The position numbers and the translations under genes are program-made. This document shows, piece after piece, positions 18,019 through 39,734 of a stretch of DNA of 64,000 bases (positions are counted from its first letter, which is position 1; the number at the start of each line of letters is the position of its first letter). The stretch comes from Lachnospiraceae bacterium UBA4260 (GTDB lineage Bacteria > Bacillota > Clostridia > Lachnospirales > Lachnospiraceae): the NCBI GenBank assembly GCA_002395235.1, contig DGWK01000008.1, positions 34,174 to 98,173 on the forward strand. Reading direction: 5' to 3'. A model generated the notes under the pieces. The model did no database searches and was not told the DNA's origin. It saw only the letters and a list, made by a program, of their open reading frames with translations.

Positions 18019-18032
18019 GGGGGTGCACAATA

Positions 18033-20078: not shown

Positions 20079-20128
20079 AGCTGATTTTCAGCCAAACGAT
20101 TATTGGCCAATTAATAGTGGAATAATAT

Positions 20129-20168
20129 CAGGAGGCTGTCACCGGTCGGTGACAGCCTCCTGTTTGTT
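20129..20168 (+). terminator. Rho-independent terminator after fba
   Basis: caggaggctgtcacc / ggtgacagcctcctg perfect stem followed by tttgttt. Confidence 0.85.
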
Positions 20169-20213
20169 TGCGGCAATGCCCGGCATGCGGCCGTTTATTT
20201 TCAGCGGTGCACG

Positions 20214-20537
20214 CTAAGCGGGCCGTTTCATCGCTTCTTCACGAGCAGCGTAAGGTTCTGAACTCTGAATACCATCCCTTGTAAACGGAAAGACCTCCTG
20301 GTCTTCATAGACCAGGAGGTCTTCCATTCTCACCCCCAGGATCCTGGAGAGAGCCAGGAGGTTATCAACAGTCGGCAGGCATTCACCATGCTGCCATTTA
20401 TAAATGGCCTGCGGGTACTCAAACCCAAAGTAGGTCTGGAGGTCCCGCACGCTAAGGCCGGCTTTCCGGCGGCATCTTTCGATGTTGCTGCCGGTGCCTT
20501 TGAGATTGATTACAGGGAAATAGACCATTTTTGCCAT
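20214..20537 (-). CDS. XRE/Cro-family helix-turn-helix regulator
   Basis: TGSNIERCRRKAGLSVRDLQTYFGFEYPQAIYKWQHGECLPTVDNLLALSRIL. Confidence 0.85.
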   Translation of the reverse strand: MAKMVYFPVINLKGTGSNIERCRRKAGLSVRDLQTYFGFEYPQAIYKWQHGECLPTVDNLLALSRILGVRMEDLLVYEDQEVFPFTRDGIQSSEPYAAREEAMKRPA

Positions 20538-20733
20538 ACTTTCCTCCTCTCTTGTACAGGCCTTGCTGTGCGTGCCATAGAAGTGGCGACACTATTCTTT
20601 TTTAACAACACCAACTATAGCACTTATCTTTTTGACTGTCTTTAAACCTGTAGTATAAAGGCGCCGCTGCTCCTCCGTGTCGGAAGATTGTCTCCCAGCC
20701 GGAAAGATGCGCCGCCGTGCGTACATGATGCAA

Positions 20734-20773
20734 ACGCCGCAGTCCCCAAGACAAACGCTCGGGACCGCGGCGT
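20734..20773 (-). terminator. Probable terminator hairpin downstream of the AAA/FtsH-like gene
   Basis: acgccgcagtccc / gggaccgcggcgt stem about 40 bp past the stop at 20816. Confidence 0.5.
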
Positions 20774-20815
20774 ATTATGCAGCATAATTACAATATAACC
20801 CTTTCGCTTATTCTC

Positions 20816-23800: not shown

Positions 23801-24346
23801 CGCCTCTTTCTTCGCAGGCTCACCCGCCTCTGCTTTCGCAGCTTCTGCCGCAGGTGCATCCTGCTTTTCCTTCTCCTCTTTCTCAGCCTTCGCCTTTGCT
23901 ATGAGTTCTTCCCGGATCTTATCCGTCGACTCCTTCAGCCGATCAGAAAGAGCGAATACATCATTGATCGAATTTCCCGTCGCAAATGCGGCCAGGATAT
24001 CGTCATTTTCTCTGTAGTAACCCGTCAAAATATCGTACGAAGAAGGCAGATCGACAACTTCTATGTCCTTTATGTCCCCGTTCAGCCACAGTGTTTCGAT
24101 ATAGCTGAACAAAAGAGGCATCCCGGTCTTGATCAGCTTCGTGTCCAGTCTCTTTTCTCCGAAAAAACGGACCGCATTCTTCCAGTCTTCCGACGGATCC
24201 TCCGGGCAGACGATCCCGCGCATTGTCTCATCCATTTCGACGAAGCTGGAATATCCGTAGTAAAGATGATAGGCTGTGATCGCACCGTCGCGAAACGAAT
24301 TCTTGCCGGCTAAGGACAAAGCCGCCTTTAATACATTGTTGTTCAC
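20816..24346 (-). CDS. Soluble fusion of ClpA/B-type AAA+, receiver-like domain, FtsH-type AAA+ and M41 zinc peptidase
   Basis: AAA 1: GPPGVGKT, LLIFDEIEKA. Middle: ALILIDL...IPIYLI...GAEGVI (CheY-like pattern). AAA 2: RFDDVIGAENAKKEL, GVLLYGPPGTGKT, IFIDEIDAIG, LDPALVRRFD. Peptidase: HESGH and ALGGRAAEEVFFG. No TM helix seen. Confidence 0.85.
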   Translation of the reverse strand: MNNNVLKAALSLAGKNSFRDGAITAYHLYYGYSSFVEMDETMRGIVCPEDPSEDWKNAVRFFGEKRLDTKLIKTGMPLLFSYIETLWLNGDIKDIEVVDLPSSYDILTGYYRENDDILAAFATGNSINDVFALSDRLKESTDKIREELIAKAKAEKEEKEKQDAPAAEAAKAEAGEPAKKEADRSAQSAQPAPEAPKEEQTGSFTFEKKEETPEEKKEKFVKLAETCRKLRMDLLETVKSQQGPVTEFVQGVYQGVVLDNKEKRKTPKASFLFVGPPGVGKTLLAETAADSMGLPYETFNMSEYSSFQAHEGLIGVSALYNNGSPANEGKLVKFVDENPRCLLIFDEIEKASRNTIQIFLQILDQASCDNVFKKTKTKFDQAIIIFTSNACRSIYEGNYGTISSTPKSVILSALKNETNPTTGEKVFPEAICSRIAAGNVIMFNHLGSRAMVSIVEEKFARTAAQVEETYGYKVSMDERLSSLFMFHHGASMDARIATKQGDNFIKNELFELSRQLESHPDLMEDVSDLRFELGMDMEDVPEEIRRLFENPEKLEIGVVCREEDRPSFKLPEEKYTVHFFDSIAQVREMVSMGLALILIDLKKGLEMDGTGGISLDDYHSFGLDAFGAVVEEGTNIPIYLIEAGEKYQETDIGLFIQRGAEGVISIVDNDEETVRESVRKLSDSVFLDRQSREFSKHGYVLDYNTAQVVSDGTLVIRYHGFKKKQAIDAESASTVLSDAARPKERFDDVIGAENAKKELKTFIRFLTNPRKYVREGRKAPKGVLLYGPPGTGKTMLARAMAGESNVSFIQTNATAFLSKWVGQSEANIRAIFNRARKYAPAIIFIDEIDAIGKTRTGESHTESALNALLTEMDGFTVDLNNPVFVLAATNYNIEPSQGRPMSLDPALVRRFDNRILVDLPNEEEREKYLRILTEKKRFEEISKDVIHNIATRTPGTSLAILQNVIDLAVRNADNDGRRPTGDDLLTALEEFNYGEKREWSEAYYRSVSVHESGHAYIAWLSGERPSYVTIESRGDFGGYMAHENSEKKPNLTKEELIWKIRCALGGRAAEEVFFGKEASLNTGASSDLQSATRYASSLLCDYGMMSGQMIALPFKMILETPLASDYLLRINNLLQEEMAGTVRMIEEGKDKVEKLSAKLLAENHLTGEEIMEILNS

Positions 24347-24502
24347 TGAATATCTCCCTTATTTCAAGCAAGGCTCTCAACGCGAGCCGCCGCGCCGCGC
24401 GCCGCCGGCACGCAGTGGGTAAACATACAGCAGCCGAACCACTCTGAGGATCCGGCTGCTGTGATTATCTGTTCTATATCAACTACCGATCAGACCGGCT
24501 TG

Positions 24503-24910
24503 TCACATGTACAGAGATCTCATGAACTCGGGATAAGCGTCATCACAGATCAGCAGCATTCTGTACATAAGGCCGAAGGTCTCATCGCCGCAGGTGCTGG
24601 GCTCAACAACCGCGTCGTCTGCCAGTGTCACTGTCATGTCATTCTCGTCGACATAGAATTTTACCCAGCTGTATTTCTTGTTCATCTGGGAGCAGAGTCT
24701 GAGAATGTTATTCATCTTGTCATCCGGAACTCTGATATAATTGAAGGACCTGAGGTGAACTTCATTTCTTTCTTCCTCAATGTGAATGTAAAGGTCGATC
24801 TTCTGCGCATTCTTGCCGCTGAATCCGGTCTTGATCAATGTTCCGTCCGGGGTTGCCTGATAGTGCCAGCCCTTAGAATCCATGTACTTACAAATCATTT
24901 CACAAAGCAT
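24503..24910 (-). CDS. YbjN-like protein (type III chaperone-like fold)
   Basis: Size 135 aa; pattern ILRLCSQMNKKYSWVKFYVDEND. Confidence 0.7.
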   Translation of the reverse strand: MLCEMICKYMDSKGWHYQATPDGTLIKTGFSGKNAQKIDLYIHIEEERNEVHLRSFNYIRVPDDKMNNILRLCSQMNKKYSWVKFYVDENDMTVTLADDAVVEPSTCGDETFGLMYRMLLICDDAYPEFMRSLYM

Positions 24911-25106
24911 CCTTAACTCCTTTCTGACTGTAAAACAGACAGTGACCTTTTTTACGCTTATTAGATTATACTAAATATTCAGCAACTTGAACAGATAATT
25001 AAACTGAAAGATTAAGTAATTGTGCATTTCATTCATAAAGAAAGCACGAACTATCCGATTATTCCTTTATATCGGACTTTAAGATTCAGAGAATGCTCAG
25101 CCGCCC

Positions 25107-26138
25107 TCACCACTGATAAGAGTTCTTTGCCGAAACAGGATATTCCGCCGTGTCCCAGACCCTGGACTGCTCCATATAATCATCTGAGACCAGCAGGAAC
25201 TGCTCTCTGTCTCCTCCGCCGTCGTTCCAGCAGGCGTCCATGTGATACCAGGCCCCGTCATACTTGACCATGTTCCAGGCGTGTCCGCCCCCCGGCGTAT
25301 CTCCCCAGATGTTTATGCAGTCAACGCCGTATTCATTCAGCAGAAGCTCACACGCTCTCGCGTATCCCTCGCAAACAGCACTGTGTTCTCTGAAAAGGCC
25401 ATATGCAGTGTGTGACTGGGGCGAATATCCTTCCAACACTCCGGGGTATTTCGAAAGATCCTGCGGCGGATACTCGTTATTGTCACACAGATAATCGTTG
25501 ACGGCCACGATGATCTCAAGATCTGATTTTCCTTTAAGATTCAGCTCACTCAGTGCGTCTTTCACAAGCTGCCGGGTCTCCTGCTTGATGCGCACAAGCT
25601 CAGAGACCGGAAGATCATATTCCAACACCAGCGTCCCCGAGTTTCCCGAGCTTGCCATACCATAGGTTCTTACGCATATACCGTCAATGGAATCCTTGCG
25701 CATTGCCCTGTCCAGAACTTTCAGGTAGATATCAAAGTCAAAAGTATAGCCGTTTACTAGCGTATACTGCGCCGTTGTCTTTGTCTCATCCATCATCCAG
25801 GCAAGGATTTTCTCGAGATCCTCATCCGAGCCGATCGTATCGTTCCCCGTCGTATCGAGCTGATCATCCTCGTCGGTCTGGTCTATAATAACCTGCGCTT
25901 CATCTTCCTCGATCGGCTCAGGCTGCTTGCGCATAGCGGAATAGGAGTCAATCAGTTCCTGCAGCATCTTGGCCGAATTGCCCGGCAGCTCATATTCGAC
26001 CTCTTCTTTCCCGTCCGCATAGCTGTCCGAGCCTGCCTGCAGCATATCAGACGGATTCTGGTCATTTCCTCCACAGCCGGCGAGCAGTGCAAGGCAGGAT
26101 AATACCACAAGAATTACTGACCATATTCTTTTTTTCAC
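25107..26138 (-). CDS. Lipoprotein with transglutaminase-like (Cys-His-Asp) domain
   Basis: Signal peptide with lipobox LLAG|C; AVCEGYA, GHAWNMV, MDACWND. Confidence 0.85.
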   Translation of the reverse strand: MKKRIWSVILVVLSCLALLAGCGGNDQNPSDMLQAGSDSYADGKEEVEYELPGNSAKMLQELIDSYSAMRKQPEPIEEDEAQVIIDQTDEDDQLDTTGNDTIGSDEDLEKILAWMMDETKTTAQYTLVNGYTFDFDIYLKVLDRAMRKDSIDGICVRTYGMASSGNSGTLVLEYDLPVSELVRIKQETRQLVKDALSELNLKGKSDLEIIVAVNDYLCDNNEYPPQDLSKYPGVLEGYSPQSHTAYGLFREHSAVCEGYARACELLLNEYGVDCINIWGDTPGGGHAWNMVKYDGAWYHMDACWNDGGGDREQFLLVSDDYMEQSRVWDTAEYPVSAKNSYQW

Positions 26139-26159
26139 AGCTTACCCTTCCTTTCCGGT

Positions 26160-29100
26160 CTATTTCTTTCCTTCGACCATCAATTTGAACGCTTCGAACG
26201 GATTTACATGGCTGCCTTCGCTTTCCAGAGTCTTCATATATTCTTTGAATGCCTTGAATCCTTCCCCGTATTCGTCTTTTCTCGCCATGAGTTCCTCTTC
26301 CATAGCATCTGCATAATCCGACTCGCCGAAATCGCGCATGGCACTTACTTCCACATAGCTGGCATGACCTTCCATGGCCACGAGGCCTCCACCCGGTCCG
26401 AGCTTATTCAGCTTCTTCAAGCCAATCTCCTCAAACTGCCAGTAATGCGTCAGCTCGTGGATCAGTGTCGACTGCACTGTGTTTCTAGGGCCGCGCGCCT
26501 CAATCCACAGCGCCTTCTTTCTGCCTCTGTCCTTGCGTTCACAGAAACCGAGCACTCTATCGTAAGGGCTGCCCTTCCCTATTCTCTTACGAATCGCTTC
26601 CGCGCTCGCGAATCGAAGATGCAGATTCTTCGGACGTCTGACTCCGTAGTGATAATACATATTATTTACTACCGTCTCATATAGCTGCCGGATCTCATCC
26701 TCCTGCCGGATCATCTGATTTTCACAGTCTCTGCAGATGCGGCGTCCGTCGTGCATCTCCTTCCAGAACACTGTCGGTTTACCGCAAAAAGAGCATCTAA
26801 TCCCGCCGGGGATATCGGGGGCCGTGGCAAAGCCTTCAGATTCCTCAAGCTTGGGCAGAAAGCTTTCACAGAATGATTCCAGCTCTGCAGAGGCGAAGAA
26901 CGCGGGCAAGGTATCCAATCCCAGATGCAGGAAACCGCCTTCTGTTTTTCCTGCCGGATCTGATGAAGCAAACCGCCTGTTATACCATTTCAGATAGTTG
27001 TCTACGATTCGGAACACTTTTATCCTGTTTTGATACAGACTTGAGATCATTCCCAATTCGATAGCGCTGTATTCAACAATATACAGCGATATTTTTTCCT
27101 CATCAGTGGAACTGTCTGCGATCTCTTCCATTTTTCCCGGACGGATGAAGGGGACTATACTATGGATCTTCTCCTCCGCTGACGCAGCGGCCGTGTCTTT
27201 AAAGAGTTTCGTCCAGTAATCATCTGACGCGTCAAATCGGGTGATGACAAACAGGTTCATATAACTGTCCGGGAACAGCGTTTTGAACAACTCCTGCATC
27301 ATGAACGCCAGAAGAAGGACCATTTGTTCTGCTTTATCTCCGGCCACCCTGCATGGGATCCGAATCTCCAGCATCTGAATGCTGTTCTTAACCTCTACGA
27401 GATCATTTCCTTCTTTTCCGTAGCGGTCATAAACTCTGCTGAGGGACATGCCCGCCTCAGCACCAAGATTGATTCCCCTGTCACTGCTCCAATAACCTTT
27501 GATAATTCGTTTGACATTGTTTGCCAGGTAGACGTTAAAATCAAGTACATCGTAATCCACACAATGATCAACGATCTGTCTGTTTCCGATTTCAAATTCA
27601 CTCGACTGATAATAGCTTTTGTGGCTTTCGGAAGCTACGTTTTCCGTGTAGACGATTCCATCCTCGATATTGAGTACATTGCGGAGAACACCTTTGATAG
27701 AGACAACCTGGTCTCGCAGGAAATAATTCATTACGTTATCTCGCAGTACAGGGATCTCTTCCACAGTCTCAGATGCCTTATGGTTCAGCTTAACAAACGA
27801 AGTCTGCCTGACCAGCTCCTTTTTAATCGCCTCGTTAATGAGGGTGATCGTCACCTGTCTCTCATATTCGTCAGTTGCCGCATTAAAGACAGTTTCTTCG
27901 CTGAAGTGGAAATGCTCATAGATATTATGATTTCTCTTTTTATCTTTGAGCACACTATTTAAAGCTACCCGGAGCAGATTGCCTATTCCTTTATAGTCCC
28001 AACCGTATTCTCTGCTTCTCTCCATGACATCTTTTTCCAGCATACCTGTATTGGCCATCTGCAGAAGAAGTGCCTGGAAGCGGCTGTGGTCGAGGTTGGA
28101 ACGCCAGCCGATCAAAGGCGCATAGTCGTTTTCTCTCCGGATCAGTTCTTCAATATTTTCAGCAAAATAATCTCTTAAAAGATACTGAGGCGAAACGATG
28201 TGGATCAGGGTACCTTTTTTTCCTCCGTATTTTAACCAGTTCCACAGTGTATTATACAGATTGAAATGATCATCATACAGAATGATCATATCCAGGTTTT
28301 CTTTCTCCAGGATATCTGAATAGTCATTGATCCGGATCCACTGAGAATAATCAGTATCTCTTCTTAAAAACCGGCGTATTTCCCTCTGATTGGCGCTCAA
28401 TGCCTTTCTATATGTCAAAAGAGGTTTGCTCTCTCCTGCATATACATGGACAGAAGGAAATTCCACGCCGACCGCGATCAGGGCTAACGTCATAGAAACG
28501 CCAATGTATTCCGAAAGGTCGCCGCCTATCCCCAATCGCCTCTGCGTTCTGTAATACCCCTCTTCGGCCCAGGCCATCACATAAGTTTCCACCTGATTGC
28601 CGACGTTCTTAAATGGGGTGATATCTTTACCGATGTAAGTTCCGAAACTTGCTTCCAGCGTCGGACTCTCCACTTCAGATACCAGCACATACTGATACTC
28701 TTTCTCAAACTCCTTCGAAATTCTCGAAAATTCGGAGAAGATCATTTCTTTGTGAATATTGCTGTATGCGCTGAATGTGACGGCTCTGTCGATCACTATC
28801 ATCTTCAGATTTTTGAAAAAGTCTTTTCTTTTGGCCAGCAGTTTGTAGCTGACAAGATCCTGAAAACCTATGACAAGAATATGGATCGTCTCATTGTTAG
28901 CAGCTTTGTCGCGGCCGCCCACGCTCCACATACACGTAACTCTATTGATTCGTTCAAGTCTCTCATCGACAATCCTTTGAAGTTCAACCGCACGCTCGTT
29001 GTCCATGCAGAGGATCAAAAAAGTGTCCCCTTCCGTGCAATAATAATTCATATACGCGCACAGATAAGTCAGGATCTCACCCTGCAGATAATCTCTGATA

Positions 29101-30116
29101 CTCACGGAAGAATCATTAAGAAGTTCTACAAGGACATTATTGTACTCTTTGTTCGTTCGAACCCCGGCTTCTCTGAGCTGATTGCTGATGATCTCCAGTA
29201 CATGAGGCTTTTTGCACGCTTCCTGCTGCGAGTTGGTAACGCCGTTATATTTCAGCCCGCTGCTCTGCATACTGACCATTCGAGGCTCATAGGACTTTAA
29301 TAATACTTTTGTTCCTCCAAAATATGCTAAATAGAGATTAAAAAGGTTTTTCAGCTGCCCTCTGAGCTCCATATCTATGTCGTCACTTTGAAATGAATTT
29401 CCGCCTAAATTCATATTGTGCTCAAGGAAGAACTGGATCTGTTCAAACAGGAGGAATCCTGCTGAAGGCAGCATATACCATCCCCATGTGATCTTCCTTG
29501 TCATCTCAGCCAAAGGTTTGTCTGCACCGATCACGATGATACTGACTCCGACAACCTCTATAACACCCAGAAGGATAAAAGCATTCTTCATACTGCGGAT
29601 CCAGTGGTACCAGACGCTGCCTTTCGCGTTGACCTCGTATTCATATCCGCCTTCAGCTTCCGTATACGCAAGATCTGACAAGAGCCACGGAAAATGAACC
29701 AGCTTTTCTGTGAACGTGCCGTCCTTTACACTGATAAAACTTCTGTTGCGAAAAAGCAGCCGAATAATACCGAGCACCAAATCCGCAAGCAGAATGAAAA
29801 ACAGATTCATCAATATGATCAGGAGCAGCATATAGATCAGCTCATAATTTCGCTCAGGCGTCATCGTGTTAAAAAAGCCGGTCAGAAAAGAATTACTGAT
29901 CACACGGTCAAGTCCTTGAAGAATGTAAGGAAGCATGAGCCGGTTTCCCGACAACAAGATCAGTACGGCAAGTACAACGATCAGTCTGCAGTGCAGATAT
30001 CTTTCATTGATATCGTATTTTATAAATTGGATCGGAATATGCGCCACTATCAGAGCACCTGTACATATCAGCAGAAAAAGCAGATAATGTGCAAGCATCA
30101 TAATCAATTCATTCAT
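26160..30116 (-). CDS. Multi-TM protein with degenerate SF2 (DEAD/DEAH-like) helicase core, Cys4 Zn finger and HExxH (DA1-like) metallopeptidase
   Basis: N-terminal hydrophobic helices; motif remnants FLILCMDNERAVEL (Ia), ILVIGFQDL (Ib), LKMIVIDRA (II), no GKT; C-terminal CSFC...CRDC then STLIHELTHYWQ...EGHASY. Confidence 0.6.
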   Translation of the reverse strand: MNELIMMLAHYLLFLLICTGALIVAHIPIQFIKYDINERYLHCRLIVVLAVLILLSGNRLMLPYILQGLDRVISNSFLTGFFNTMTPERNYELIYMLLLIILMNLFFILLADLVLGIIRLLFRNRSFISVKDGTFTEKLVHFPWLLSDLAYTEAEGGYEYEVNAKGSVWYHWIRSMKNAFILLGVIEVVGVSIIVIGADKPLAEMTRKITWGWYMLPSAGFLLFEQIQFFLEHNMNLGGNSFQSDDIDMELRGQLKNLFNLYLAYFGGTKVLLKSYEPRMVSMQSSGLKYNGVTNSQQEACKKPHVLEIISNQLREAGVRTNKEYNNVLVELLNDSSVSIRDYLQGEILTYLCAYMNYYCTEGDTFLILCMDNERAVELQRIVDERLERINRVTCMWSVGGRDKAANNETIHILVIGFQDLVSYKLLAKRKDFFKNLKMIVIDRAVTFSAYSNIHKEMIFSEFSRISKEFEKEYQYVLVSEVESPTLEASFGTYIGKDITPFKNVGNQVETYVMAWAEEGYYRTQRRLGIGGDLSEYIGVSMTLALIAVGVEFPSVHVYAGESKPLLTYRKALSANQREIRRFLRRDTDYSQWIRINDYSDILEKENLDMIILYDDHFNLYNTLWNWLKYGGKKGTLIHIVSPQYLLRDYFAENIEELIRRENDYAPLIGWRSNLDHSRFQALLLQMANTGMLEKDVMERSREYGWDYKGIGNLLRVALNSVLKDKKRNHNIYEHFHFSEETVFNAATDEYERQVTITLINEAIKKELVRQTSFVKLNHKASETVEEIPVLRDNVMNYFLRDQVVSIKGVLRNVLNIEDGIVYTENVASESHKSYYQSSEFEIGNRQIVDHCVDYDVLDFNVYLANNVKRIIKGYWSSDRGINLGAEAGMSLSRVYDRYGKEGNDLVEVKNSIQMLEIRIPCRVAGDKAEQMVLLLAFMMQELFKTLFPDSYMNLFVITRFDASDDYWTKLFKDTAAASAEEKIHSIVPFIRPGKMEEIADSSTDEEKISLYIVEYSAIELGMISSLYQNRIKVFRIVDNYLKWYNRRFASSDPAGKTEGGFLHLGLDTLPAFFASAELESFCESFLPKLEESEGFATAPDIPGGIRCSFCGKPTVFWKEMHDGRRICRDCENQMIRQEDEIRQLYETVVNNMYYHYGVRRPKNLHLRFASAEAIRKRIGKGSPYDRVLGFCERKDRGRKKALWIEARGPRNTVQSTLIHELTHYWQFEEIGLKKLNKLGPGGGLVAMEGHASYVEVSAMRDFGESDYADAMEEELMARKDEYGEGFKAFKEYMKTLESEGSHVNPFEAFKLMVEGKK

Positions 30117-32182
30117 TCGCTTCCTCCGTTGATTTGTTGAGGCCAGTAAAAAGGATTTTCAATTACGCCGTAATTATAATCCAGTTCAATATCCGATGCG
30201 CTGTATCTACTGCCGATCGAATACCCCCTGATTCTGTCATTATAGAGAAGACTGAAGAAAGAGCATTTCTGAAGGTGTCTTCCGATTGCTTCTTTATGCC
30301 ACAAAAACTTCCTGTTCTCCTCAGTGCTATGAGTCCTCATATCTTCCAGATCCTGGAGATAATGATTCATGACATCAATAGCATTAATATTATTCATATA
30401 CTCTTCGAAATTGCGGGCTATCTCGTTATATCCCCTTGTAAATTTAATCAAATCTTTTTTCAACTGCTTCGTAGATTCTGCCATTCTTGCTCTGTAATAG
30501 ATGCCGGGCGCGCCCCATGCAAAGACCATTAACAGCGTGGCTGCGGCAGCACTTAAGCCGGCTCCTGCCAGATTCCACATATCACTGAAGAGGCTTTCCT
30601 GCAGCAGCAGATGGGAAAGCAGGACAAATCCGCCGGCCGTCAGAAATAGCAGGATGAAGTTTGCTAATCGTATCTGATCCCGCCTTTTTCTGTAGTAATG
30701 TATCTCCTTACTGCAAGTTCGGATGGCAAGATCCACATACAGCTGATCATCGTACGTTACATGAGGTATCATTTTCTGTCTTTTCAGATCTTCCAGCAGC
30801 TCTTCCTTTCTCCGATTTACTTTGCGGATCACCTCATCAATCTGGTCTGTGTCGTAAATCCTGTTGTCCGTTTTCTCCTTAGCCCTTTTGTCATTTCTTT
30901 GACGTATTTCGCTCTTATACAATGAGCTGAGTGTTTCCGAGAATTTTTCCAGGGAAACTTCCAGCCTTCCAAGCAGCTCTTTTAATTGCTTCTCCACGTC
31001 ATCCCAGGATTTTTCACTGTTTAGCGTGTGTACGCTTCTCTCGTACTCTTCCAATATTCCGGCGATCTTTTTCTCGTATTCGGTCCCGTCAAATTCACAC
31101 AGAAATCTCGCCGGTTCTTCAACGTTAAATTTCAGGCTTTCCTCAGCATTTGTATACCTGCCTGCCATTTCTCTCTGGCGGCTGCTCATTCTCTCTTCAT
31201 ACAGCATCATCATATTGCCGTATTTTTTCCAGATTACTTCATCATCTTTGGCATTTTTCCAGTTTTCCCTGGCTTTCTGTTTCAAAGTCGAATTTATATC
31301 ATTCTCATCTTTGCCGTCTGTGTTTCCGGCCAGCCCCGTAGTTATATAATCTACAATTCCCAGCAGTGCAAGCCTGTGTTCCGCAGTGTCGCTGCTGATC
31401 TTTTTTGTGAATACACTGAACGCGCTAACCGTTTCACTGGTGAATGCTACCAGATTGTGGATGTTATTAAATCGGGCAACTCTGTTTCTTTGTTCCTCAG
31501 ACAGGTTGTCTTTTTTCTTTGGCGATGGCGGCGGCGGCGGTTCCTTCCTGCTTTCTTCATATAATTTGTTGGTTGTATACCACTCGTAAAAATCATTCAA
31601 AAACTGGATTGTGACCGCGTCCTTCTTTTCGATCGATGCTCTCTTCATATTCTCGATGATCTCTCTCTCAGAAGGCAAGGTACCCGCTTCCCCCCAGTCA
31701 ACCCCCAAATACTCCATCAGGGCAGGAAGATCAAAAGTATGGTCTTCTATCTCATCGCCGATTCGTTTTTCATCGAGTGTATTCTCAACGTCATATAGTA
31801 ATATGACAGTAACGTTCTTATCCACTCTGTCTTTTGTCTTAATAAAGACTTTGGCGTTCTGCATACAGTAGTGAATTTTGAGCAGTCTGTAAAGAACGGT
31901 TTCTTTCCACGGCACATCTTTTTTGTATCTCTGCCGTACCCCGAAGATCAGTCTGTAATCACGAATCATATGAGAAGATTGGCCGATATAATTCTTGATC
32001 TTATATAACGCATTCTGAATGCTTCTGTTTTCGGGAGTCCCGCCGCCCTTCCCTGCGGTGTCATTAAAGCTTGCTTCCACAACATAAAACTTGTGATCAT
32101 TCTGCAGTTTATAAAAGAACATCTCGAAAGTCGACATGTTCAGGCATTCGTCCACGTTGATATAGAAATTAAACTCATTCAA
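30113..32182 (-). CDS. Hypothetical protein: N-terminal alpha/beta region, coiled coils, two TM helices near the C-terminus
   Basis: Long open frame overlapping the next gene by 4 bp; likely TTG start at 32182 after RBS GGAGG (ORF track starts at 32227); TMs LANFILLFLTAGGFVLLSHLLL and LAGAGLSAAAATLLMVFAW. Confidence 0.75.
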   Translation of the reverse strand: MNEFNFYINVDECLNMSTFEMFFYKLQNDHKFYVVEASFNDTAGKGGGTPENRSIQNALYKIKNYIGQSSHMIRDYRLIFGVRQRYKKDVPWKETVLYRLLKIHYCMQNAKVFIKTKDRVDKNVTVILLYDVENTLDEKRIGDEIEDHTFDLPALMEYLGVDWGEAGTLPSEREIIENMKRASIEKKDAVTIQFLNDFYEWYTTNKLYEESRKEPPPPPSPKKKDNLSEEQRNRVARFNNIHNLVAFTSETVSAFSVFTKKISSDTAEHRLALLGIVDYITTGLAGNTDGKDENDINSTLKQKARENWKNAKDDEVIWKKYGNMMMLYEERMSSRQREMAGRYTNAEESLKFNVEEPARFLCEFDGTEYEKKIAGILEEYERSVHTLNSEKSWDDVEKQLKELLGRLEVSLEKFSETLSSLYKSEIRQRNDKRAKEKTDNRIYDTDQIDEVIRKVNRRKEELLEDLKRQKMIPHVTYDDQLYVDLAIRTCSKEIHYYRKRRDQIRLANFILLFLTAGGFVLLSHLLLQESLFSDMWNLAGAGLSAAAATLLMVFAWGAPGIYYRARMAESTKQLKKDLIKFTRGYNEIARNFEEYMNNINAIDVMNHYLQDLEDMRTHSTEENRKFLWHKEAIGRHLQKCSFFSLLYNDRIRGYSIGSRYSASDIELDYNYGVIENPFYWPQQINGGSE

Positions 32183-32278
32183 GAGACTTTCCCTCCGTTC
32201 TATTGAACTCTCTGCAGAAGATGACAAGGCTGCTCTGCCTTACTGGCAGGCAGCCTGTCATAAAACTCCCTTGTTCGA

Positions 32279-35200
32279 TCAATAGGTAATGCTGATTTCC
32301 TTAAGCCGGTTCATATGCATCCGGATCTTCTTTTCAATTGGATCCAGAGCTGCACCGCTCGCCTCTTTTTTGCCGGTATTACTGGCTTTATACATGCGAT
32401 CGAGCGCTTCCTTATATATATCATCAGCAGCTGTATACTTGTCTGGAAACAGATTTTGCAGGTACTCTGTCAATGTCAGCTGGATTCCTTCAAACAGATG
32501 GTCCCAGCTTCTTTCTTTCATTCGCTCGTCCCGGATCATCGATTCAAGAATATCAAGAATATTACTGTCATCACTCTCCGGTATTTCCTGAATGAGATCC
32601 TTGAGCAGAGACAATTCATTGATCATGTCGTCCGGTCTCAACATTCCCATACTATTGCGTTCCTTCTCGTTATCATCTTCTGCGCGCTCTAATATGTTGT
32701 CTACCAGAAGCCTGTTGTTGCGAAGCGCCTTATAAAGATCCACATACCCCGAACGGATGAGAAGTCCCTTTTCGCGCACAGGAGTCCTGTATTTCTTTAT
32801 GTTTATATACTGCCACTTGTCTCCGCTGGTGATCCCGGGTACTTCTTCTCTAATGAATACATCCATCCCCATTGCGTAAAAGAATGCTTTTCTGATCATT
32901 CTGTCGCGGAAGAATCTCTCCGTTTTGGTCAATTCCGGAAGGAAACCGTCTTCGTGCCAGAACTGATCCAAATGCGGTGTCACAACAGTCTTGTAGGCGT
33001 CTTCTCCATATACGATCGGATCGAGCCCGATATTTGCAATTCTCTCTCTATAGAGCTCTGCAAACTCTGAGTCATAAGCATATTTTGACAATTGCTCAAC
33101 AGTATATTTGTGTTTGACTTTCATGCAGATGATCTCATATTTAGAGAAACTGTCATTTACCAGAACCGCAGGAATCATATAATCCGTCGCTTGTGTCTTT
33201 TCTGCTATTCGGTCTTCCGTTACCGCTTTGTTGAATTCTCCACCGCTCTGCTCGCCCGCTGCCGGGTTCATGGCAATATAAACATTTTCCGATGTGTTTT
33301 CATTGCTGTTCACGGAAATCATGGGGGCAGCCTCTGACATTGCCAGTTCAATTAGTTTTTTCTCGTAATCCAGACGATCTTTGTTAAAGCTCTCGGAATA
33401 CTCAGAGTATCCCTCAAGTTTCATCTGCTTCACGATCGCCTCTTTGATCGAGATATTAACAGTCTTGTCTCCCTCCACATCAACATAATCATAGATTTTC
33501 TTAAGGATCGCCGAATCAAATAAAGAAGCAATGTCTTCTTTAACGCGAATCCTTGTTTTTTTCCTCATCTCCGGCGAAACTTCAACATTTGTATCATTGT
33601 CAAAAAGGATTGTAGCCTGACGGAACAGCCCCAGGAAGACTCCTTCCTTGGCTTCTTCCGGTACCTGGAAATCAGAATACTTTGAAAAATCGCCGAAGGA
33701 CTGCTTAAATGCATCCGGACTTCCATACACAATGTGGATACCATAGGGGTTCTCAATGAAACTGTTTTCAAGATTATTCAGTTTTTCGTTATTTCCTTCG
33801 ATCCGGACTTCAATAGTCTGGAAGAAATCCTCATAATTTTTGGCGAGCTGGTCAAATCTCCGGCGCAAAGCTCTGTAAGTAGCGGTCTTGATCTGATTAG
33901 TACCGTAACTCTTAATATCTTCAATTCTCTGGTTATAGTATTTCTTATAATCTTCAACAACTTCACTGATTGCCTTCGAAGAAGGGAAAATGAAGAAACT
34001 CTTTTTGTTGTTTGCTTCATTGAGCATATAATGCGCTGTTTGAACACCTTTCTTTTCCGTATCAAAGTCCGTGTTCTCAAATCCCTTAATTGAAGACTGC
34101 GTTATCACATCCGGCAGCTTCGAGATTTTCTTATCCAGTTCCATAACCATTTTATAGCACAGATATCTGGCCACTACAGGATGCGTTTTCCCTATAAAAT
34201 TGTACACGCTCAAGGGGGATCCCTTACCCATCATCATTGTCTCATAGGATTCCGGAAATACCTCGTTAGCGATTTGATATCGACAGCTCTCTACATGATT
34301 GATCATAGCCTGGGCATAATTGTTGATCGCCTCGGTCCTTTCTGTGAACTGTTCAGATGCGACTTTATATTCTTTTATATTCTCATCGCTGAACCCGCAC
34401 TGTTTTTCCTTGGCTTGAAGCTGCGTCGTATCCAGGATCTCCTCAATTCGCGAATCGATTTTTTTCAGAAAACTTGTAACTTTGCTTCTCGGAGCCTTCG
34501 TGCTGTCGTTGTCTATAATAAAGGCCTCATTCTTGAGGGCGCCAAGCCTCCTTCCTTCTTTTCCGTCTGTCTCTGTTTCGAACTTACTGGTATAAACCTC
34601 CATGGTCTTGGGGATCTTCACAGAAGGATCTGATTTCTGCCTGCTCCTTGCGTCCCGCTTTTCCAATTCGCACAGCTTATCCAATAAGATCCATTCGTCG
34701 TTGACGATCTTTTTGCAGAAACGAAGAGTTATATATTCTTTAATCTGTTTATAGGGATATCTCAATAGGCAAAGCCCTGCGGATGAATAGCGATTCATCC
34801 CGGCGCACTGAATATCCAGAAGCGTTTCGTTATTCGCCGAGCTTGCTGCTGAGTCATAGACAGGCGTGAACAGCAATGTGTAAACAATAGCGGCAACCTG
34901 TTCCTTTATTGTTTCGAGGCTGGCCTCTCCCGTCGTTCCCTCGTTGTCGATTCCTTCTACAAGGTAAAATGAATCATAGGGAATCGTAGCTCCCTCATCA
35001 ATCATTCCCTTTATCTTTACCTGGACTTCCTCTCCTGTAATATTTTCACCGATCTTGAACTTTTTATATTTCCTTGTCAGAGTCTCCTTACCGATCTCAT
35101 ATTCCCTTTTCCAGTTTTTGCTATCGTAAAACTCAAATTCCAGGGTCTCAGTGTCGGATTCTTTTTCGGCCTGTGTCAGATACAGTGCATTCAGTTCTTT

Positions 35201-35827
35201 CAGGCATGCATATGCGTTGATCTTAACCGCGTCTCTGTTGATCTTTGAAGGATTGACGTTTTTGGTAATATCAGGTCCGACGAACATTCCCCTGATCTGA
35301 ATTTTGACTCCGGGCATGTTTTTTTTCATATAATCCCTGATATAGTAAGGGATCTGAAGAAATGACCCGGCACCGGTTCCTCCGGTGATCGATCCTGCAA
35401 TGAAAACATTAAATCTCTCGATACTTGTGTTTCCTGAATGTCTCAGTATTCGACTAATCTCGTTTTCCAAAATCAGAAGCGGATTGTGATCACTGAGTAC
35501 AGAAGCTGCCAGTACAAGACGCGCGATCGCGCGGATCTGTCCGGCTCCTTCAGAGAGCCCGCGCGTATTGATAAATTTGTTCGCAGGAAACCAATCAATT
35601 GCATTCAAAGCATTATTATTCAGCACTGACTTTACAATTCCCGTATCCCCGATCCAAATTTTTTGAACATTTTCAAGCTTATTCAGATCTCCCAGATCCG
35701 TGTCAATGGCAACAGCCCCCACGAAACTCTTTTGGGATTCAGGAAGCTTCCCCATTACTTTATCAACTATAGACCCTCCGATCCCTCCAAGTCCGACCAG
35801 CAGTACAGGTACATTTTTGGCTATCAT
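32279..35827 (-). CDS. Tubulin/FtsZ-like GTPase (Tubulin_2-type) with very long helical C-terminal extension
   Basis: VLLVGLGGIGGSIV (T1), AIDTD, GAGQIRAIAR (T3), GSITGGTGAG (T4 signature loop), NAYACLKELN, YSSAGLCLLRYP. Confidence 0.85.
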   Translation of the reverse strand: MIAKNVPVLLVGLGGIGGSIVDKVMGKLPESQKSFVGAVAIDTDLGDLNKLENVQKIWIGDTGIVKSVLNNNALNAIDWFPANKFINTRGLSEGAGQIRAIARLVLAASVLSDHNPLLILENEISRILRHSGNTSIERFNVFIAGSITGGTGAGSFLQIPYYIRDYMKKNMPGVKIQIRGMFVGPDITKNVNPSKINRDAVKINAYACLKELNALYLTQAEKESDTETLEFEFYDSKNWKREYEIGKETLTRKYKKFKIGENITGEEVQVKIKGMIDEGATIPYDSFYLVEGIDNEGTTGEASLETIKEQVAAIVYTLLFTPVYDSAASSANNETLLDIQCAGMNRYSSAGLCLLRYPYKQIKEYITLRFCKKIVNDEWILLDKLCELEKRDARSRQKSDPSVKIPKTMEVYTSKFETETDGKEGRRLGALKNEAFIIDNDSTKAPRSKVTSFLKKIDSRIEEILDTTQLQAKEKQCGFSDENIKEYKVASEQFTERTEAINNYAQAMINHVESCRYQIANEVFPESYETMMMGKGSPLSVYNFIGKTHPVVARYLCYKMVMELDKKISKLPDVITQSSIKGFENTDFDTEKKGVQTAHYMLNEANNKKSFFIFPSSKAISEVVEDYKKYYNQRIEDIKSYGTNQIKTATYRALRRRFDQLAKNYEDFFQTIEVRIEGNNEKLNNLENSFIENPYGIHIVYGSPDAFKQSFGDFSKYSDFQVPEEAKEGVFLGLFRQATILFDNDTNVEVSPEMRKKTRIRVKEDIASLFDSAILKKIYDYVDVEGDKTVNISIKEAIVKQMKLEGYSEYSESFNKDRLDYEKKLIELAMSEAAPMISVNSNENTSENVYIAMNPAAGEQSGGEFNKAVTEDRIAEKTQATDYMIPAVLVNDSFSKYEIICMKVKHKYTVEQLSKYAYDSEFAELYRERIANIGLDPIVYGEDAYKTVVTPHLDQFWHEDGFLPELTKTERFFRDRMIRKAFFYAMGMDVFIREEVPGITSGDKWQYINIKKYRTPVREKGLLIRSGYVDLYKALRNNRLLVDNILERAEDDNEKERNSMGMLRPDDMINELSLLKDLIQEIPESDDSNILDILESMIRDERMKERSWDHLFEGIQLTLTEYLQNLFPDKYTAADDIYKEALDRMYKASNTGKKEASGAALDPIEKKIRMHMNRLKEISITY

Positions 35828-35847
35828 ATATTTTTCCTCCTCATTGA

Positions 35848-38508
35848 TTAATCTATTGCGTAAAGAGTATTATCATCTTTTGCAAAATAGGTCCTTACTC
35901 CGCCCAAAGAAACCGGCTTGGAATGATTATGTCCTTTACCATTGTCCCGTCTTTCGGTCTGTTCCTTGATCTTTTCCAATATCTCTACAAAATCATCGCC
36001 TCTGGCCGTCCCCCAGTAACAGCCGACTTCGTCGGGGTTAAACTGCGGTTGTCCAGTGGTAGAAGGATATATTTTGATTCCTATATACGGTATTCTGTGA
36101 CAGGAGGGACCGGGCCTGATAAATCGCAGCGGGCTTCCCTCACCGTATGGTTTCAGGAACATTGTTCTTGTTTGAGCTGCGATCGGCGACAGTTCGTCGT
36201 CTTCTCCTCTTGCAAATGCATATATGTGCAGTTTCCTGTCTTTCTTGAATTTTGGTTTCCAGAAGATCAGATACAGTATGTAACAAATGGTAAATATTAC
36301 ACAAAGCTCTATGATCAGCGTGATCCAGTCCGACAGCTTTCCCCTGACCTCGACCACAACTTCCTGCTGCGCCGAATTGGCGTCGAGCACCGCGACTGCA
36401 TGGTAATTGCCGGTCGTGATCAGATACGGGAACAGCAGTTTTCTGAAGAAGCCTGTGCGCGGTACTGCGCTGTAGCTTCCGTCATCGTTCTGGACCAGTT
36501 CAATCCTCGCGTTCAGGAATCCGACTCTGTTCAGCAGTAAACCAAAGTCATCTCTCTCCACCGTGACATTTTCTTTGTCCAGCTTCAATTGCCTCGTGCC
36601 TGTAGTCTCGTTCTTCGAGAGCCTTTGAGGATGACCGTCTCCGATACCGTCCCGATCGGCATCTTCATCTCTGACGATCCAGATTACAGGAGCTTTATCA
36701 ACATTTTCCTTTTTATTTAATTCCTTCCTGTAGAAGGATCCCGGGTCATTTTCCGCTTCAAGCGCGTAAACGGAAGGATTGGGGACGTTAAACTCAACAA
36801 TTTCCTGTGCCGTGATGTCCCCCGCCTCATAATCGCAGACAATGGCGTTATCTCCGGATAGGAGCTTTATGTCTCTGTATTCGTTCGAAGGTTTGCTACC
36901 CTCTTCATTTCCGTTGACCTGATACGAAATATTCCAGTTTTCAGCGGCGGACAGCTTTGCCGCGTCGATCGGCTCACCGGTATTCTTGTCAATTGCCTCT
37001 GCATTTACAGTGATCACATCATCCGCTTCAACGCTTCCGAGAAGATTGGTTCCGTCAATATTGTCATATACAATAATGTCCTCAACACTTCCCTTCTGAA
37101 TAATCTTTAAGTGAATACCGGGATCCGGTCTGTATTCCAGAACATCTATGCTGATCGTATTGGAGTGTACCGGTATCATCCCGGGGATCGTCATCTGCCC
37201 CGTAAAGCTGTAAGATCCGTGCTGTATATCGTCCACATTCATCGTAAATCCCGAAGCTGTTTCTGTTCCCTGGTCCCATTTCTCTACGATCCCATAGTCC
37301 GTGCCGGAAGGCAGCAGGCTCTTATCCATCTCCTTGCCTGTAGACGGATCCACCAATGTCATGCGAAGCTCTATATCACTCCCCTCCGTAACCTGGGCGC
37401 CCGTTTTGACTTCGTTTCCGTCTATAAACATTGTAAGGGCAAGAGTAACTGCGGGCTGATACATCAGGACAAGCGATTTCTTGTCAATCGGAGCTGAAAA
37501 CTCTATCGTATACTTTCCTGCGGGAATGACCTGATCCTGATTAGAGATAACGGACACATTTCCGTGTAGATTAGGAGATTCAATATCTTCAAACCCGACA
37601 ATGCGTTCACTCTCCGGTCCAAACACATCTTCCGGCTCAGGACTCTGTACTTTGGCATTATTAAAATCCAGTATCAGTTCATTTCCTTCCGTGTCCTCTG
37701 TTTTTGCAGAAGTCACTTCCGCCTGCGAATTCTGTGTGAAAGCTGAGAGACTGTAGAGAGGAATCCTGGAGCTGACTTCGATCGTCTTCTCGTCCACAAA
37801 TTTGATATCCTTATCGTCATATTTCAGACGGCCTGAGATAGCGTTGGCCACATCATTCAGAGTCTCTACAATGTTATCCGAGTTCACCGATTCGAGTCCG
37901 TTGGCCGAATCCTCCGGTACCTCTTCAGAATTACTGCCGATTCCATAATAGAAGACACGCAGGGGAGATCCGTTGCTCATCGGCTTACCCTTGAGCGCAT
38001 TACACGCTGCTATGATGTCATCGTATTGTGATTCTCTTCTCTGAAAGATGCCATCAGTCATGATCACAAGCCAATATTGTGTAGTGGGATCTGAATCGCT
38101 GATACTCTCCAGTTTTTCCTCCGCCACATCAACAGAATTCAGCGGAGTCAGATTCCAGTTTGTCATTTTTGTTCGAATCTCATCGGCCGCCGCCTGCGGG
38201 TCAGAGATGTCCACCTCCCTCGCTTCCAGCTCAGACATATACGTGATGTAAAATTCGTCCTGAGGATTCATCAGGGCCGCGAATACCTGTGTCGCGTAGT
38301 TGGCCTCAGCCCAGGAATCAAAAAGGGTCCCCTCATTATCCCCGTACATACTGGAAGAATCGTCGAACACCAACGACACGATCTTCTTTGGCGCCTTGAT
38401 CTCTGATCCGCTCCCTCCCTGAGAAGTGGCAGATGCGGGAACAATCGACGCCGCAAATACCGCCACTATTACAGTCAGACACAGAAGTAGTTTTTTCACG
38501 TTTTTCAT
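35848..38508 (-). CDS. Single-pass membrane vWA-domain protein with large extracellular beta-rich region
   Basis: Signal peptide, MIDAS FDDSSSM with VIMTDG, TM WITLIIELCVIFTICYILYLIFW then basic KPKFKK, about 120-aa cytoplasmic tail. Confidence 0.8.
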   Translation of the reverse strand: MKNVKKLLLCLTVIVAVFAASIVPASATSQGGSGSEIKAPKKIVSLVFDDSSSMYGDNEGTLFDSWAEANYATQVFAALMNPQDEFYITYMSELEAREVDISDPQAAADEIRTKMTNWNLTPLNSVDVAEEKLESISDSDPTTQYWLVIMTDGIFQRRESQYDDIIAACNALKGKPMSNGSPLRVFYYGIGSNSEEVPEDSANGLESVNSDNIVETLNDVANAISGRLKYDDKDIKFVDEKTIEVSSRIPLYSLSAFTQNSQAEVTSAKTEDTEGNELILDFNNAKVQSPEPEDVFGPESERIVGFEDIESPNLHGNVSVISNQDQVIPAGKYTIEFSAPIDKKSLVLMYQPAVTLALTMFIDGNEVKTGAQVTEGSDIELRMTLVDPSTGKEMDKSLLPSGTDYGIVEKWDQGTETASGFTMNVDDIQHGSYSFTGQMTIPGMIPVHSNTISIDVLEYRPDPGIHLKIIQKGSVEDIIVYDNIDGTNLLGSVEADDVITVNAEAIDKNTGEPIDAAKLSAAENWNISYQVNGNEEGSKPSNEYRDIKLLSGDNAIVCDYEAGDITAQEIVEFNVPNPSVYALEAENDPGSFYRKELNKKENVDKAPVIWIVRDEDADRDGIGDGHPQRLSKNETTGTRQLKLDKENVTVERDDFGLLLNRVGFLNARIELVQNDDGSYSAVPRTGFFRKLLFPYLITTGNYHAVAVLDANSAQQEVVVEVRGKLSDWITLIIELCVIFTICYILYLIFWKPKFKKDRKLHIYAFARGEDDELSPIAAQTRTMFLKPYGEGSPLRFIRPGPSCHRIPYIGIKIYPSTTGQPQFNPDEVGCYWGTARGDDFVEILEKIKEQTERRDNGKGHNHSKPVSLGGVRTYFAKDDNTLYAID

Positions 38509-38672
38509 CTCGTCCCCCTGTTATATATTGCGCAAGCAATCCATAAATCATCCTCTTATATAATAAACAAATCACACTACTTGTACAAATTATAAATCTA
38601 AATCCTTTGAATATTGTGTAATTTTCTACATAAATCAAATCTTTTTCTGCTTTTTCTTCCGAATTCTCCGTC

Positions 38673-38702
38673 AAAAAAACGGCAGTGTATAACTGCCGTT
38701 TT
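38673..38702 (-). terminator. Terminator of the alpha/beta hydrolase gene; marks the upstream boundary of operon 1
   Basis: Minus strand aaaacggcag-ttataca-ctgccgttttttt. Confidence 0.7.
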
Positions 38703-38740
38703 CCGCGTGCTCATATAGCCCACTCCATGCGTAAAATTGT

Positions 38741-39586
38741 TCAATGCTTCCGCCACTCCTCCAGCCACTCATGCACAAGCGTGACCCACTGCACCGCCGT
38801 CGTGTCCATGATCCTCTTATCGGACCTCGTGCGCCAGTCCGCCAGACTCATGCCGTGCACGTCGCCGGGGAATATATGATATTCCACGGGCTTTCTGGCC
38901 CTGACCAGTTCTGTGGCAAAATAGAGCGAGTTCTCCAGCGGCACCGCATTATCATAGGAGGTGTGCCACATGAAGACGGGAGGCACATCCTTCAGGTCCT
39001 GCTTTTCCAGAGACATCTTTTCCAGCCAGAGCGGGTCGCTTCGCCTTTCTTCTCCCAGCAGATCGTCAAAAGAGCCCCTGTGCGCGTATTCTCCCGAAGT
39101 GATCACAGGATAGCACAGGATCAACCCGTTCGGCCAGATCTGCTCTGCCGCAAGCTGCAGGCCGTTCTCCTCCCGGATCTTCGCAAACCATTCCGTATTC
39201 CAGAAAACTCCAAGAGACGCAGCCAGGTGACCGCCAGCCGAAAATCCAAGGACTGCGATTCGCTCCGGATCGATGCGCATTTCTGCCGCGTGCTCCCTTA
39301 TATAAGCCATCGCTCTCGACAGTTCCAGAAGCGCGGTCGGAAAGACGGCCGGCGCGCAGGAATAGCGCAGGACCGCCGTGTGATAGCCCATGGCGTTAAA
39401 CTGCATCGCGACGATCTCCGCCTCCCTGTCTGAGGTGTGACTGTATCCGCCGCCCGGGCAGACCAGGACCAGCGGCCGCTCCTGCACCGTGAAACTGTCT
39501 GTGACCTCCAGAAAGAAAGTCTCCAGATAGGCGTCTGCGCGGGTCCCCGGGACCCGGATCTCCTCTTTCAAAATATTGTGGATCAT
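38741..39586 (-). CDS. Alpha/beta hydrolase (acetyl/carboxylesterase-like)
   Basis: CPGGGY, GFSAGGHLA, D (SYDNAV) and H (DVHGMS) of the triad. Confidence 0.88.
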   Translation of the reverse strand: MIHNILKEEIRVPGTRADAYLETFFLEVTDSFTVQERPLVLVCPGGGYSHTSDREAEIVAMQFNAMGYHTAVLRYSCAPAVFPTALLELSRAMAYIREHAAEMRIDPERIAVLGFSAGGHLAASLGVFWNTEWFAKIREENGLQLAAEQIWPNGLILCYPVITSGEYAHRGSFDDLLGEERRSDPLWLEKMSLEKQDLKDVPPVFMWHTSYDNAVPLENSLYFATELVRARKPVEYHIFPGDVHGMSLADWRTRSDKRIMDTTAVQWVTLVHEWLEEWRKH

Positions 39587-39734
39587 ACTTCTAACTCCTC
39601 TTGAAATAATACTTTACATATCTGCCGGTTATGTCATAAATTGTTATTATTCAGCCCCCGGAATGCGCAGCATTTGGGATGTGGTGCGCTGAATAGTTAT
39701 GTTGCTTTATGATTTTCAGAAAGGATCACCACAC

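Follow-up and report, generated by a model that had tools for sequence, protein, structure and literature searches.

A predicted tubulin/FtsZ-superfamily GTPase of the FtsZl1 family within a conserved five-gene membrane-protein cassette of a Lachnospiraceae bacterium

The FtsZ-like-1 (FtsZl1) proteins and the type of operon that carries them were catalogued in 2010 by comparative genomics, and the Pfam model Tubulin_2 represents the 'FtsZ-like' proteins of that study by Makarova and Koonin (PMC9871819). The family has inserts of its own between the T1 and T4 loops, and its T6-H7 region and C-terminal domain are not confidently alignable (PMC2875224). For Ruminococcus lactaris, Additional file 5 of the 2010 paper (PMC2875224) gives the layout vWA-FtsZl1-B5-B12. 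Sets of a tubulin and an extracellular-vWA protein from firmicutes and actinobacteria were subsequently placed among nucleoside triphosphate (NTP)-dependent conflict systems by Kaur et al. 2020 (eLife 9:e52696). A literature search for biochemical, structural or genetic work on FtsZl1 proteins found none. Here we analysed a 64,000-nucleotide stretch of DNA (the window; contig DGWK01000008.1, positions 34,174 to 98,173) from assembly GCA_002395235.1 of Lachnospiraceae bacterium UBA4260, and describe a further member of this family and operon type: the FtsZl1 protein P0001, encoded by the second of five minus-strand genes, together with its partners P0002 (vWA protein), P0003 and P0004 (in the slots of B5 and B12) and P0005 (transglutaminase-like lipoprotein).

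P0001 matched Tubulin_2 (PF13809) with an E-value of 1.8e-43 (149.6 bits; gathering cut-off 27), the match extending over residues 9-375 and over profile positions 1-355 of 356; the Tubulin model PF00091 reached 23 bits on the same protein, under its cut-off of 33. A whole-genome profile scan (2.74 Mb, 43 contigs) detected a single Tubulin_2 gene. No meaningful match to P0001 was obtained among PDB chain sequences, and none in NCBIfam or PADLOC. The loops expected of a tubulin-like GTPase read GLGGIG (G12-G17, T1), GAGQ (G94-Q97, T3) and GGTGAG (G149-G154, T4), and among 110 aligned full-length homologues their glycines were invariant or nearly so, as were D42 and T43, whose 'DTD' resembles the 'NTD' of the FtsZ T2 loop, and the wider T4 signature S146xTGGTGAG154. 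The same degree of conservation was found at R99, R103, G180, N204, Y206, E211, E291 and N333, and the T5 residues were also among those conserved. The profile match and the loops identify P0001 as an FtsZl1 protein, a highly diverged predicted GTPase of the tubulin/FtsZ superfamily, in which a complete nucleotide-binding half (T1-T5) is followed by about 780 residues of helical stalk and alpha/beta domain.

An earlier, sequence-only reading of this DNA had proposed a tubulin/FtsZ-family protein with intact GTP-binding loops that is not ftsZ. The family assignment stands, with a tubulin-family profile matching far above its cut-off and with structural matches in the tubulin superfamily (below); the loops it named are present in the translation and retained across the homologues; and the separation from ftsZ was confirmed, since a bona fide ftsZ lies elsewhere in the genome, on another contig (C13), where it encodes GGGTGTG, an FtsZ_C domain, NLDFAD and the C-terminal peptide LDIPSFLRQ. 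Searches of P0001 for FtsZ_C (PF12327), for NxDFAD and for a C-terminal FtsZ peptide were all negative, as the same reading had held for the last two, both of which are present in the genome's FtsZ; P0001 terminates in ...KIRMHMNRLKEISITY, with no FtsZ tether peptide. The statement that the gene has no fts neighbours was likewise upheld by annotation of the neighbourhood, which consists of vWA and membrane proteins and holds no fts or dcw genes. P0001 is thus no cell-division protein.

The structure of P0001 was modelled by AlphaFold2 on the 110-sequence alignment, giving a mean predicted local distance difference test score (pLDDT) of 88.6 and a predicted template modelling score (pTM) of 0.78. 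When the model was compared with the PDB by Foldseek, every one of the 50 best matches was a tubulin-superfamily chain, led by CetZ1 (4b46, E 1.3e-5) and followed by TubZ, FtsZ, gamma-tubulin and BtubAB; a Foldseek search of the viral models in BFVD gave a best E-value of 1.3e-3 and none below 1e-3. FtsZ, CetZ, TubZ and the tubulins, the best structural matches of P0001, share with it a Rossmann-like nucleotide-binding half, the T1-T5 loops and the GGTGxG signature. The target-normalised TM-scores were 0.3-0.49, and therefore roughly the nucleotide-binding half alone matches; similarly, when the family profile was compared by hhalign with the FtsZ of this genome, the alignment covered residues 6-176 (T1-T4) only, at 60% probability. 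Unlike the families covered by PF00091, P0001 has no recognisable acidic T7 loop and no FtsZ_C/Tubulin_C domain, and adds a 780-residue extension. Within the GTPase region, residues ~221-285 lie between a long helix (195-220) and a strand (286-290) and are weakly conserved (mean top-residue frequency 0.32 vs 0.63 in the core; pLDDT 65-76). The loop that follows the conserved helix 325-340 reads GMNR, with N345 and R346 conserved. Beyond residue ~400 the model is mainly helical as far as the C-terminus, with single helices of up to 72 residues (616-687), and includes a conserved alpha/beta domain (~846-1016) in which a near-invariant NPHLxxxWHE motif occupies positions 950-959. P0001 contains no hydrophobic segment and is thus predicted to be soluble.

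Several features that had first appeared peculiar to this protein proved to be those of its family. Its relatives in public data comprise 1213 representatives (~1200 clusters at 50% identity) from many phyla, and most of the best 150 of these representatives measure 1100-1250 amino acids, so that the 'giant' length of 1182 residues was read correctly and is nevertheless the FtsZl1 norm. The insertion reported in the GTPase region was recovered as the segment at ~221-285, and it is a family-wide trait, not a peculiarity of P0001, because the Tubulin_2 profile spans it. The extension of about 800 residues is mostly helical as described, but not purely so, given the alpha/beta domain. Finally, the gene does lie outside any division cluster, as had been noted, without being isolated, as it occupies the second position in a conserved vWA-FtsZl1-B5-B12(-transglutaminase) operon.

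The five genes of this cassette follow one another on the minus strand with successive gaps of no more than 51 bases or with overlaps, the vWA gene being directly upstream of the P0001 gene at a distance of 20 bases, and are predicted from this arrangement to be co-transcribed as one operon. To assess its conservation, we compiled 86 loci carrying P0001 relatives, drawn from contigs of metagenomes and from a genome set in which each species is represented once. A vWA orthologue was immediately upstream in 57 of the 86 loci, and a P0004 homologue was found at a fixed distance, ~5.4 kb downstream, in 54; P0003 was recognisable in 27 and a transglutaminase-like protein in 29. In distant loci (Longimicrobium, Bacteroidota, Bacilli, Desulfobacterota and Cloacimonadota) the same layout was seen, with a third-position gene of ~2 kb and a full-length fourth protein of ~1280-1300 amino acids. 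Where the tubulin-like proteins were 36% identical, the pairwise identities of the partners were 27-43%, and the neighbours are orthologous. One copy, L015, has all five genes with a tubulin-like protein 38% identical, and lies on a contig (JAFRFD010000072.1) assigned to a Methanobrevibacter sp. metagenome-assembled genome (MAG) from goat ileum; either a binning error or a gut bacteria-to-archaea transfer would account for its position on a methanogen contig. RyR-domain proteins were observed in the flanks of two loci, and in one of the loci, a Hadza gut metagenome contig (L008, ~20781-23552), an RyR-domain protein and a 1081-amino-acid TIR/ThsB-like protein are encoded downstream of the cassette.

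Compared with the 2010 catalogue, P0001 has in common with the FtsZl1 proteins of Makarova and Koonin the Pfam family, the N-terminal GTPase, the long helical region, the helical C-terminus and a length of ~1100-1200 amino acids. As far as the R. lactaris entries of the 2010 table go, its FtsZl1 operon shares the gene order of the cassette, the encoded proteins measuring 732, 1136, 678 and 1418 amino acids there and 886, 1182, 704 and 1318 here. P0003 and P0004 fit B5 and B12, an assignment made from order, size and annotation. The same entries place a 'B13' upstream of the vWA gene, which this locus lacks, and among them no separate gene for a transglutaminase-like lipoprotein is seen, in contrast to the present cassette. 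Two features go beyond the 2010 description: an MrfA-like pseudo-helicase core in the B12 partner, which that paper does not describe, and a recurrent transglutaminase-like component, either separate or fused.

The four partner proteins are all predicted to reside in or on the membrane, which leaves P0001 as the only soluble product of the cassette (Table 1). P0002 is predicted to expose a vWA domain and a beta-rich region to the outside, to cross the membrane at residues 731-749 and to end in a cytoplasmic tail of ~137 residues. Its metal-ion-dependent adhesion site (MIDAS) is complete (D49, S51, S53, T121 and D152) and invariant across 38 orthologues. P0002 itself, being too diverged, has no direct Pfam match, and the vWA assignment is seen at the level of its orthologues, 16 of the 38 matching VWA_2 and 12 matching VWA; profiles of this partner family and of the coiled-coil family of P0003 retrieved only weak Ig-like or irrelevant matches when compared with PDB sequences. 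Within the tail (residues 750-886), P799 and A815 were nearly invariant among the orthologues. P0003, a predicted cytoplasmic helical or coiled-coil protein in the position of 'B5' in the R. lactaris operon, gave no homologue when searched against Pfam, NCBIfam, PADLOC and the PDB.

The AlphaFold2 model of residues 236-1318 of P0004 (pLDDT 82.5) matched the helicase MrfA (6znp_A) by Foldseek with an E-value of 2e-22 over ~900 columns, followed by many superfamily 2 (SF2) helicases. It thus shares the whole fold of the DUF1998 SF2 helicase MrfA/YprA (PDB 6ZNP), including the Cys4 zinc domain, whose cysteines (C1108, C1111, C1128 and C1131) were nearly invariant among 32 orthologues; it was probably this MrfA-type domain that had been annotated as a 'Zn finger' of 'B12' in 2010. 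Unlike MrfA/YprA, however, P0004 is predicted to be anchored by four to five transmembrane helices, carries a C-terminal zincin with an HExxH...E site (H1220, E1221, H1224 and E1249), and does not have intact helicase motifs I and II. Neither a Walker A motif (GxGKT) nor DExH was conserved among the 32 orthologues, the P-loop position having the consensus D-x-x-x-G-E-F, and P0004 is therefore read as an ATP-dead, helicase-shaped scaffold. DUF6782 was matched by 26 of the 32 orthologues. In P0005 the triad Cys256-His286-Asp301 was conserved in 21 orthologues. P0004-like and P0005-like sequences are fused into single open reading frames of 1628-1918 codons in three loci (L066, L086 and L090), and these fusions support the view that the two peptidase-type domains are functionally linked. 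One sigma-70-like match was found (38587-38560) in the likely promoter region upstream of the vWA gene, the number of such matches being not above chance.

Table 1. Features of the FtsZl1 cassette and of the slot that contains it (positions in the window)
Feature	Position	Strand	Description
FtsZl1 / Tubulin_2 protein P0001	32279..35827	minus	ATG start, 1182 amino acids, no transmembrane segment
P0001 N-terminal tubulin-like GTPase domain	34628..35827	minus	residues 1-400, includes variable insert 221-285
P0001 C-terminal extension	32282..34627	minus	residues 401-1182: helical region, alpha/beta domain, terminal helical bundle (DSSP of the model and conservation)
vWA membrane protein P0002	35848..38508	minus	886 amino acids; predicted signal/anchor helix 7-25
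Coiled-coil protein P0003	30113..32227	minus	704 amino acids; predicted C-terminal transmembrane hairpin 524-542, 553-571
Polytopic protein P0004	26160..30116	minus	1318 amino acids; 4-5 predicted N-terminal transmembrane helices; fits 'B12'
Transglutaminase-like lipoprotein P0005	25107..26138	minus	343 amino acids; lipobox LLAGC; PF01841 E 1.8e-8
Intergenic region, likely operon promoter region	38509..38740	minus	AT-rich, 34.5% GC, upstream of vWA gene
Variable slot	20081..38819		18.7 kb: AAA-AAA-M41 protease gene, ybjN-like gene, five-gene cassette
Soluble FtsH-like protein	20816-24346	minus	1176 amino acids; two AAA modules and Peptidase_M41, HESGH, no transmembrane helix
YbjN-like gene	24503-24910	minus	shares variable slot with cassette

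The cassette occupies a slot that varies between strains. By blastn, the closest relative (G005, contig C74) was collinear over just two segments of the window, 17960-20080 and 38820-41358, and in its slot (C74 2546-5155, locus L095), which is bounded by a class-II aldolase gene and an alpha/beta-hydrolase gene, a single gene for an 869-amino-acid clostripain-family protein (Peptidase_C11) is found instead. The GC content of the cassette is 43-48% vs ~53% around it, and the GC content at third codon positions (GC3) is lower too. Among 25 genomes of the genus one had a full-length copy, and a sample of 301 genomes from the class contained 9-10 with Tubulin_2. The island held no integrase, transposase or tRNA. 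We conclude that the cassette was horizontally acquired and sits in a strain-variable slot devoid of mobility genes. Contigs from four independent gut/rumen metatranscriptomes covered ~26-36.6 kb of the window at identities of 95% or more, for most contigs 99% or more, and the flanks of the cassette had little or no contig cover in three of the four runs; the cassette is thus present in RNA libraries.

Two further genes share the slot. None of the 25 other genomes sampled in the genus has the ybjN-like gene, and ~3 of them have the double-AAA/M41 form of the protease gene; in L069, one of the distant loci, an AAA gene of 36% identity lies immediately after the transglutaminase-like gene. These genes may have a facultative association with the cassette. 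They were rejected as its sixth and seventh components, being missing from the other loci, having a host-like GC3 and being set apart by AT-rich or hairpin-containing spacers.

Taken together, the loops, the model and the predicted topology of the partners suggest, with a probability of roughly 0.6, that P0001 serves an envelope-spanning complex as its cytoplasmic scaffold, regulated by GTP. At the inner membrane face, FtsZl1 would bind GTP and self-assemble or change its conformation and, as a nucleotide-regulated scaffold, would connect the vWA protein on the surface with the peptidases tethered to the membrane, the cytoplasmic tail of P0002 being a candidate docking site for P0001. The direction may be outside-in, with ligand binding leading to assembly and protease activation, or inside-out, with FtsZl1 positioning the extracellular enzymes; the zincin and the ATP-dead helicase-like scaffold of P0004 would be on the cytoplasmic side and the transglutaminase-like lipoprotein outside the cell. 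The MIDAS, zincin (HExxH plus E), Cys4 and Cys-His-Asp sites of the partners are all intact. Since no canonical T7 loop or FtsZ/tubulin C-terminal domain can be recognised in P0001, any assembly would probably proceed through a non-canonical interface and the helical stalk. Several points weigh against this scaffold reading. GTP binding, hydrolysis, assembly and the protein-protein contacts of FtsZl1 are all things that we infer; hhalign and Foldseek back the N-terminal nucleotide-binding half only; no conserved acidic residue of the T7 type was found in the alignment of the 110 homologues, and polymerisation-coupled hydrolysis therefore may not occur; and the contigs of metatranscriptomes can include contaminating DNA.

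Since neither a canonical T7 loop nor the C-terminal domain is recognisable, a non-polymerising GTP switch is a serious alternative, in which FtsZl1, keeping no more than the nucleotide-binding half of the tubulin fold and acting as a monomer or a dimer joined through its stalk, would regulate the B12 protease and form no filaments. Neither T6-H7 nor T7 nor the C-terminal activation domain can be recognised in P0001, and the pTM of 0.78 over the full length suggests a compact multi-domain particle. Set against these points, the conserved N345/R346 loop and helix 325-340, with its invariant N333, could form an alternative longitudinal interface. Furthermore, to our knowledge, all characterised members of the tubulin/FtsZ superfamily self-assemble. 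We regard the switch as possible, and the scaffold as the explanation to be preferred.

A conflict system directed at phages or at other bacteria would be a specialisation of the scaffold reading: the vWA protein or the helicase-shaped scaffold would sense an invader, FtsZl1 would assemble in a threshold-like, GTP-dependent manner, and the zincin and/or the transglutaminase-like peptidase would carry out a response that is either abortive or protective. We rate this specialisation as rather unlikely. The grouping of tubulin and extracellular-vWA sets with conflict systems by Kaur et al. 2020 argues for it, and those systems resemble the present cassette in pairing a tubulin that has a C-terminal coiled-coil or helical extension with an extracellular-vWA membrane protein, at a predicted location near the membrane. 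They differ in that GAP1-N2 is accompanied there by a TRAFAC-clade (DO) GTPase with an N-terminal zinc ribbon, or by two of these, components that are absent here: no GAP1 or P-loop GTPase Pfam match and no GxxxxGK[ST] motif was found in the five cassette proteins. The firmicute version moreover has two tubulin genes, whereas this locus has one, and the YtkA-vWA protein of the Kaur systems is missing here, with zincin/pseudo-helicase and transglutaminase-like proteins instead.

The very patchy distribution and the low-GC variable slot are in favour of a conflict role, patchiness and island location leaning slightly towards such a role, as are the TIR/ThsB-like gene that adjoins the cassette in L008 and a few defence-type matches in the flanks (2TM effector, SMODS-associated NUDIX, LmuB and MkoA). 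Helicase folds of the MrfA/DUF1998 type occur in defence systems, namely in DrmA/B of DISARM and in DruE of Druantia, and the fold of P0004 adds to the argument; its helicase motifs, on the other hand, appear dead. When 105 proteins flanking the cassette in 20 loci were scanned against PADLOC and Pfam for a location in defence islands, only isolated defence-type matches were obtained, with one protein per defence family and some of the matches generic. The flanks were heterogeneous, mostly housekeeping and without integrases, and 'defence island' was therefore not adopted as evidence; in the slot, too, the lack of an integrase or transposase speaks against a conflict role. P0001-P0005 had no match in PADLOC-DB 2.0 at E-values up to 0.01, and together with the ordinary flanks this means that the lean towards conflict should not be over-read. 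A more explicit version, which we judge unlikely, is that the cassette would be a self-contained, envelope-spanning sensor/effector, which would make it the first immune or conflict system based on a tubulin. In it a MIDAS ligand, such as a phage, a toxin or the surface of a foreign cell, would act through the cytoplasmic tail on GTP-dependent FtsZl1 assembly at the membrane and thereby activate the zincin, tethered to its MrfA-like scaffold, and the transglutaminase-like enzyme.

The original proposal of Makarova and Koonin 2010 (PMC2875224) was that of a machine for membrane remodelling or envelope morphogenesis. FtsZl1 filaments would deform or organise the membrane (vesicles, compartments or local wall remodelling), vWA, B5 and B12 would be membrane adaptors, and the transglutaminase-like enzyme would act on wall or surface proteins. 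In agreement with this, every partner is predicted to be membrane-associated, the extracellular transglutaminase-like enzyme has an intact triad, and the combination of a GTPase with a long helical stalk may recall, by analogy, the dynamin-like membrane remodellers. No lipid-binding element was identified in the cassette, however; its rarity and strain-specificity would be odd for a core morphogenetic function, and a cytoplasmic zincin and a pseudo-helicase would be unexpected in such a machine. We consider remodelling doubtful and retain the GTP-regulated scaffold as the preferred explanation.

A second division FtsZ, or a TubZ/PhuZ-like segregation tubulin of a plasmid or prophage, is scarcely credible, for the likeness of P0001 to FtsZ and TubZ at the level of the fold is outweighed by the missing FtsZ_C, NxDFAD T7 loop and C-terminal peptide, by the genome's own ftsZ, by the membrane-protein neighbours, by the BFVD search with nothing below E 1e-3, by the lack of TubR-like, centromere, phage or plasmid genes in the island, and by a length of 1182 amino acids in a chromosomal slot free of plasmid or phage genes, in contrast to the ~300-480 amino acids and plasmid or phage context of TubZ/PhuZ.

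Arguably, no branch of the tubulin/FtsZ superfamily is more divergent than FtsZl1/Tubulin_2, and the locus described here offers a clean case for its study, with intact motifs in each of the five proteins, a well-delimited operon and contig cover in gut/rumen metatranscriptomes; furthermore, relatives were found in isolate genome records, which are strain-designated and not labelled as MAGs. Should the immune or conflict reading be true, it would provide the first function for FtsZl1, a branch uncharacterised since 2010. The locus is suited to two questions about this family: whether a tubulin fold can polymerise when it has neither a canonical T7 loop nor the usual C-terminal domain, and what purpose a membrane machine made of a tubulin, a vWA protein and proteases may serve.

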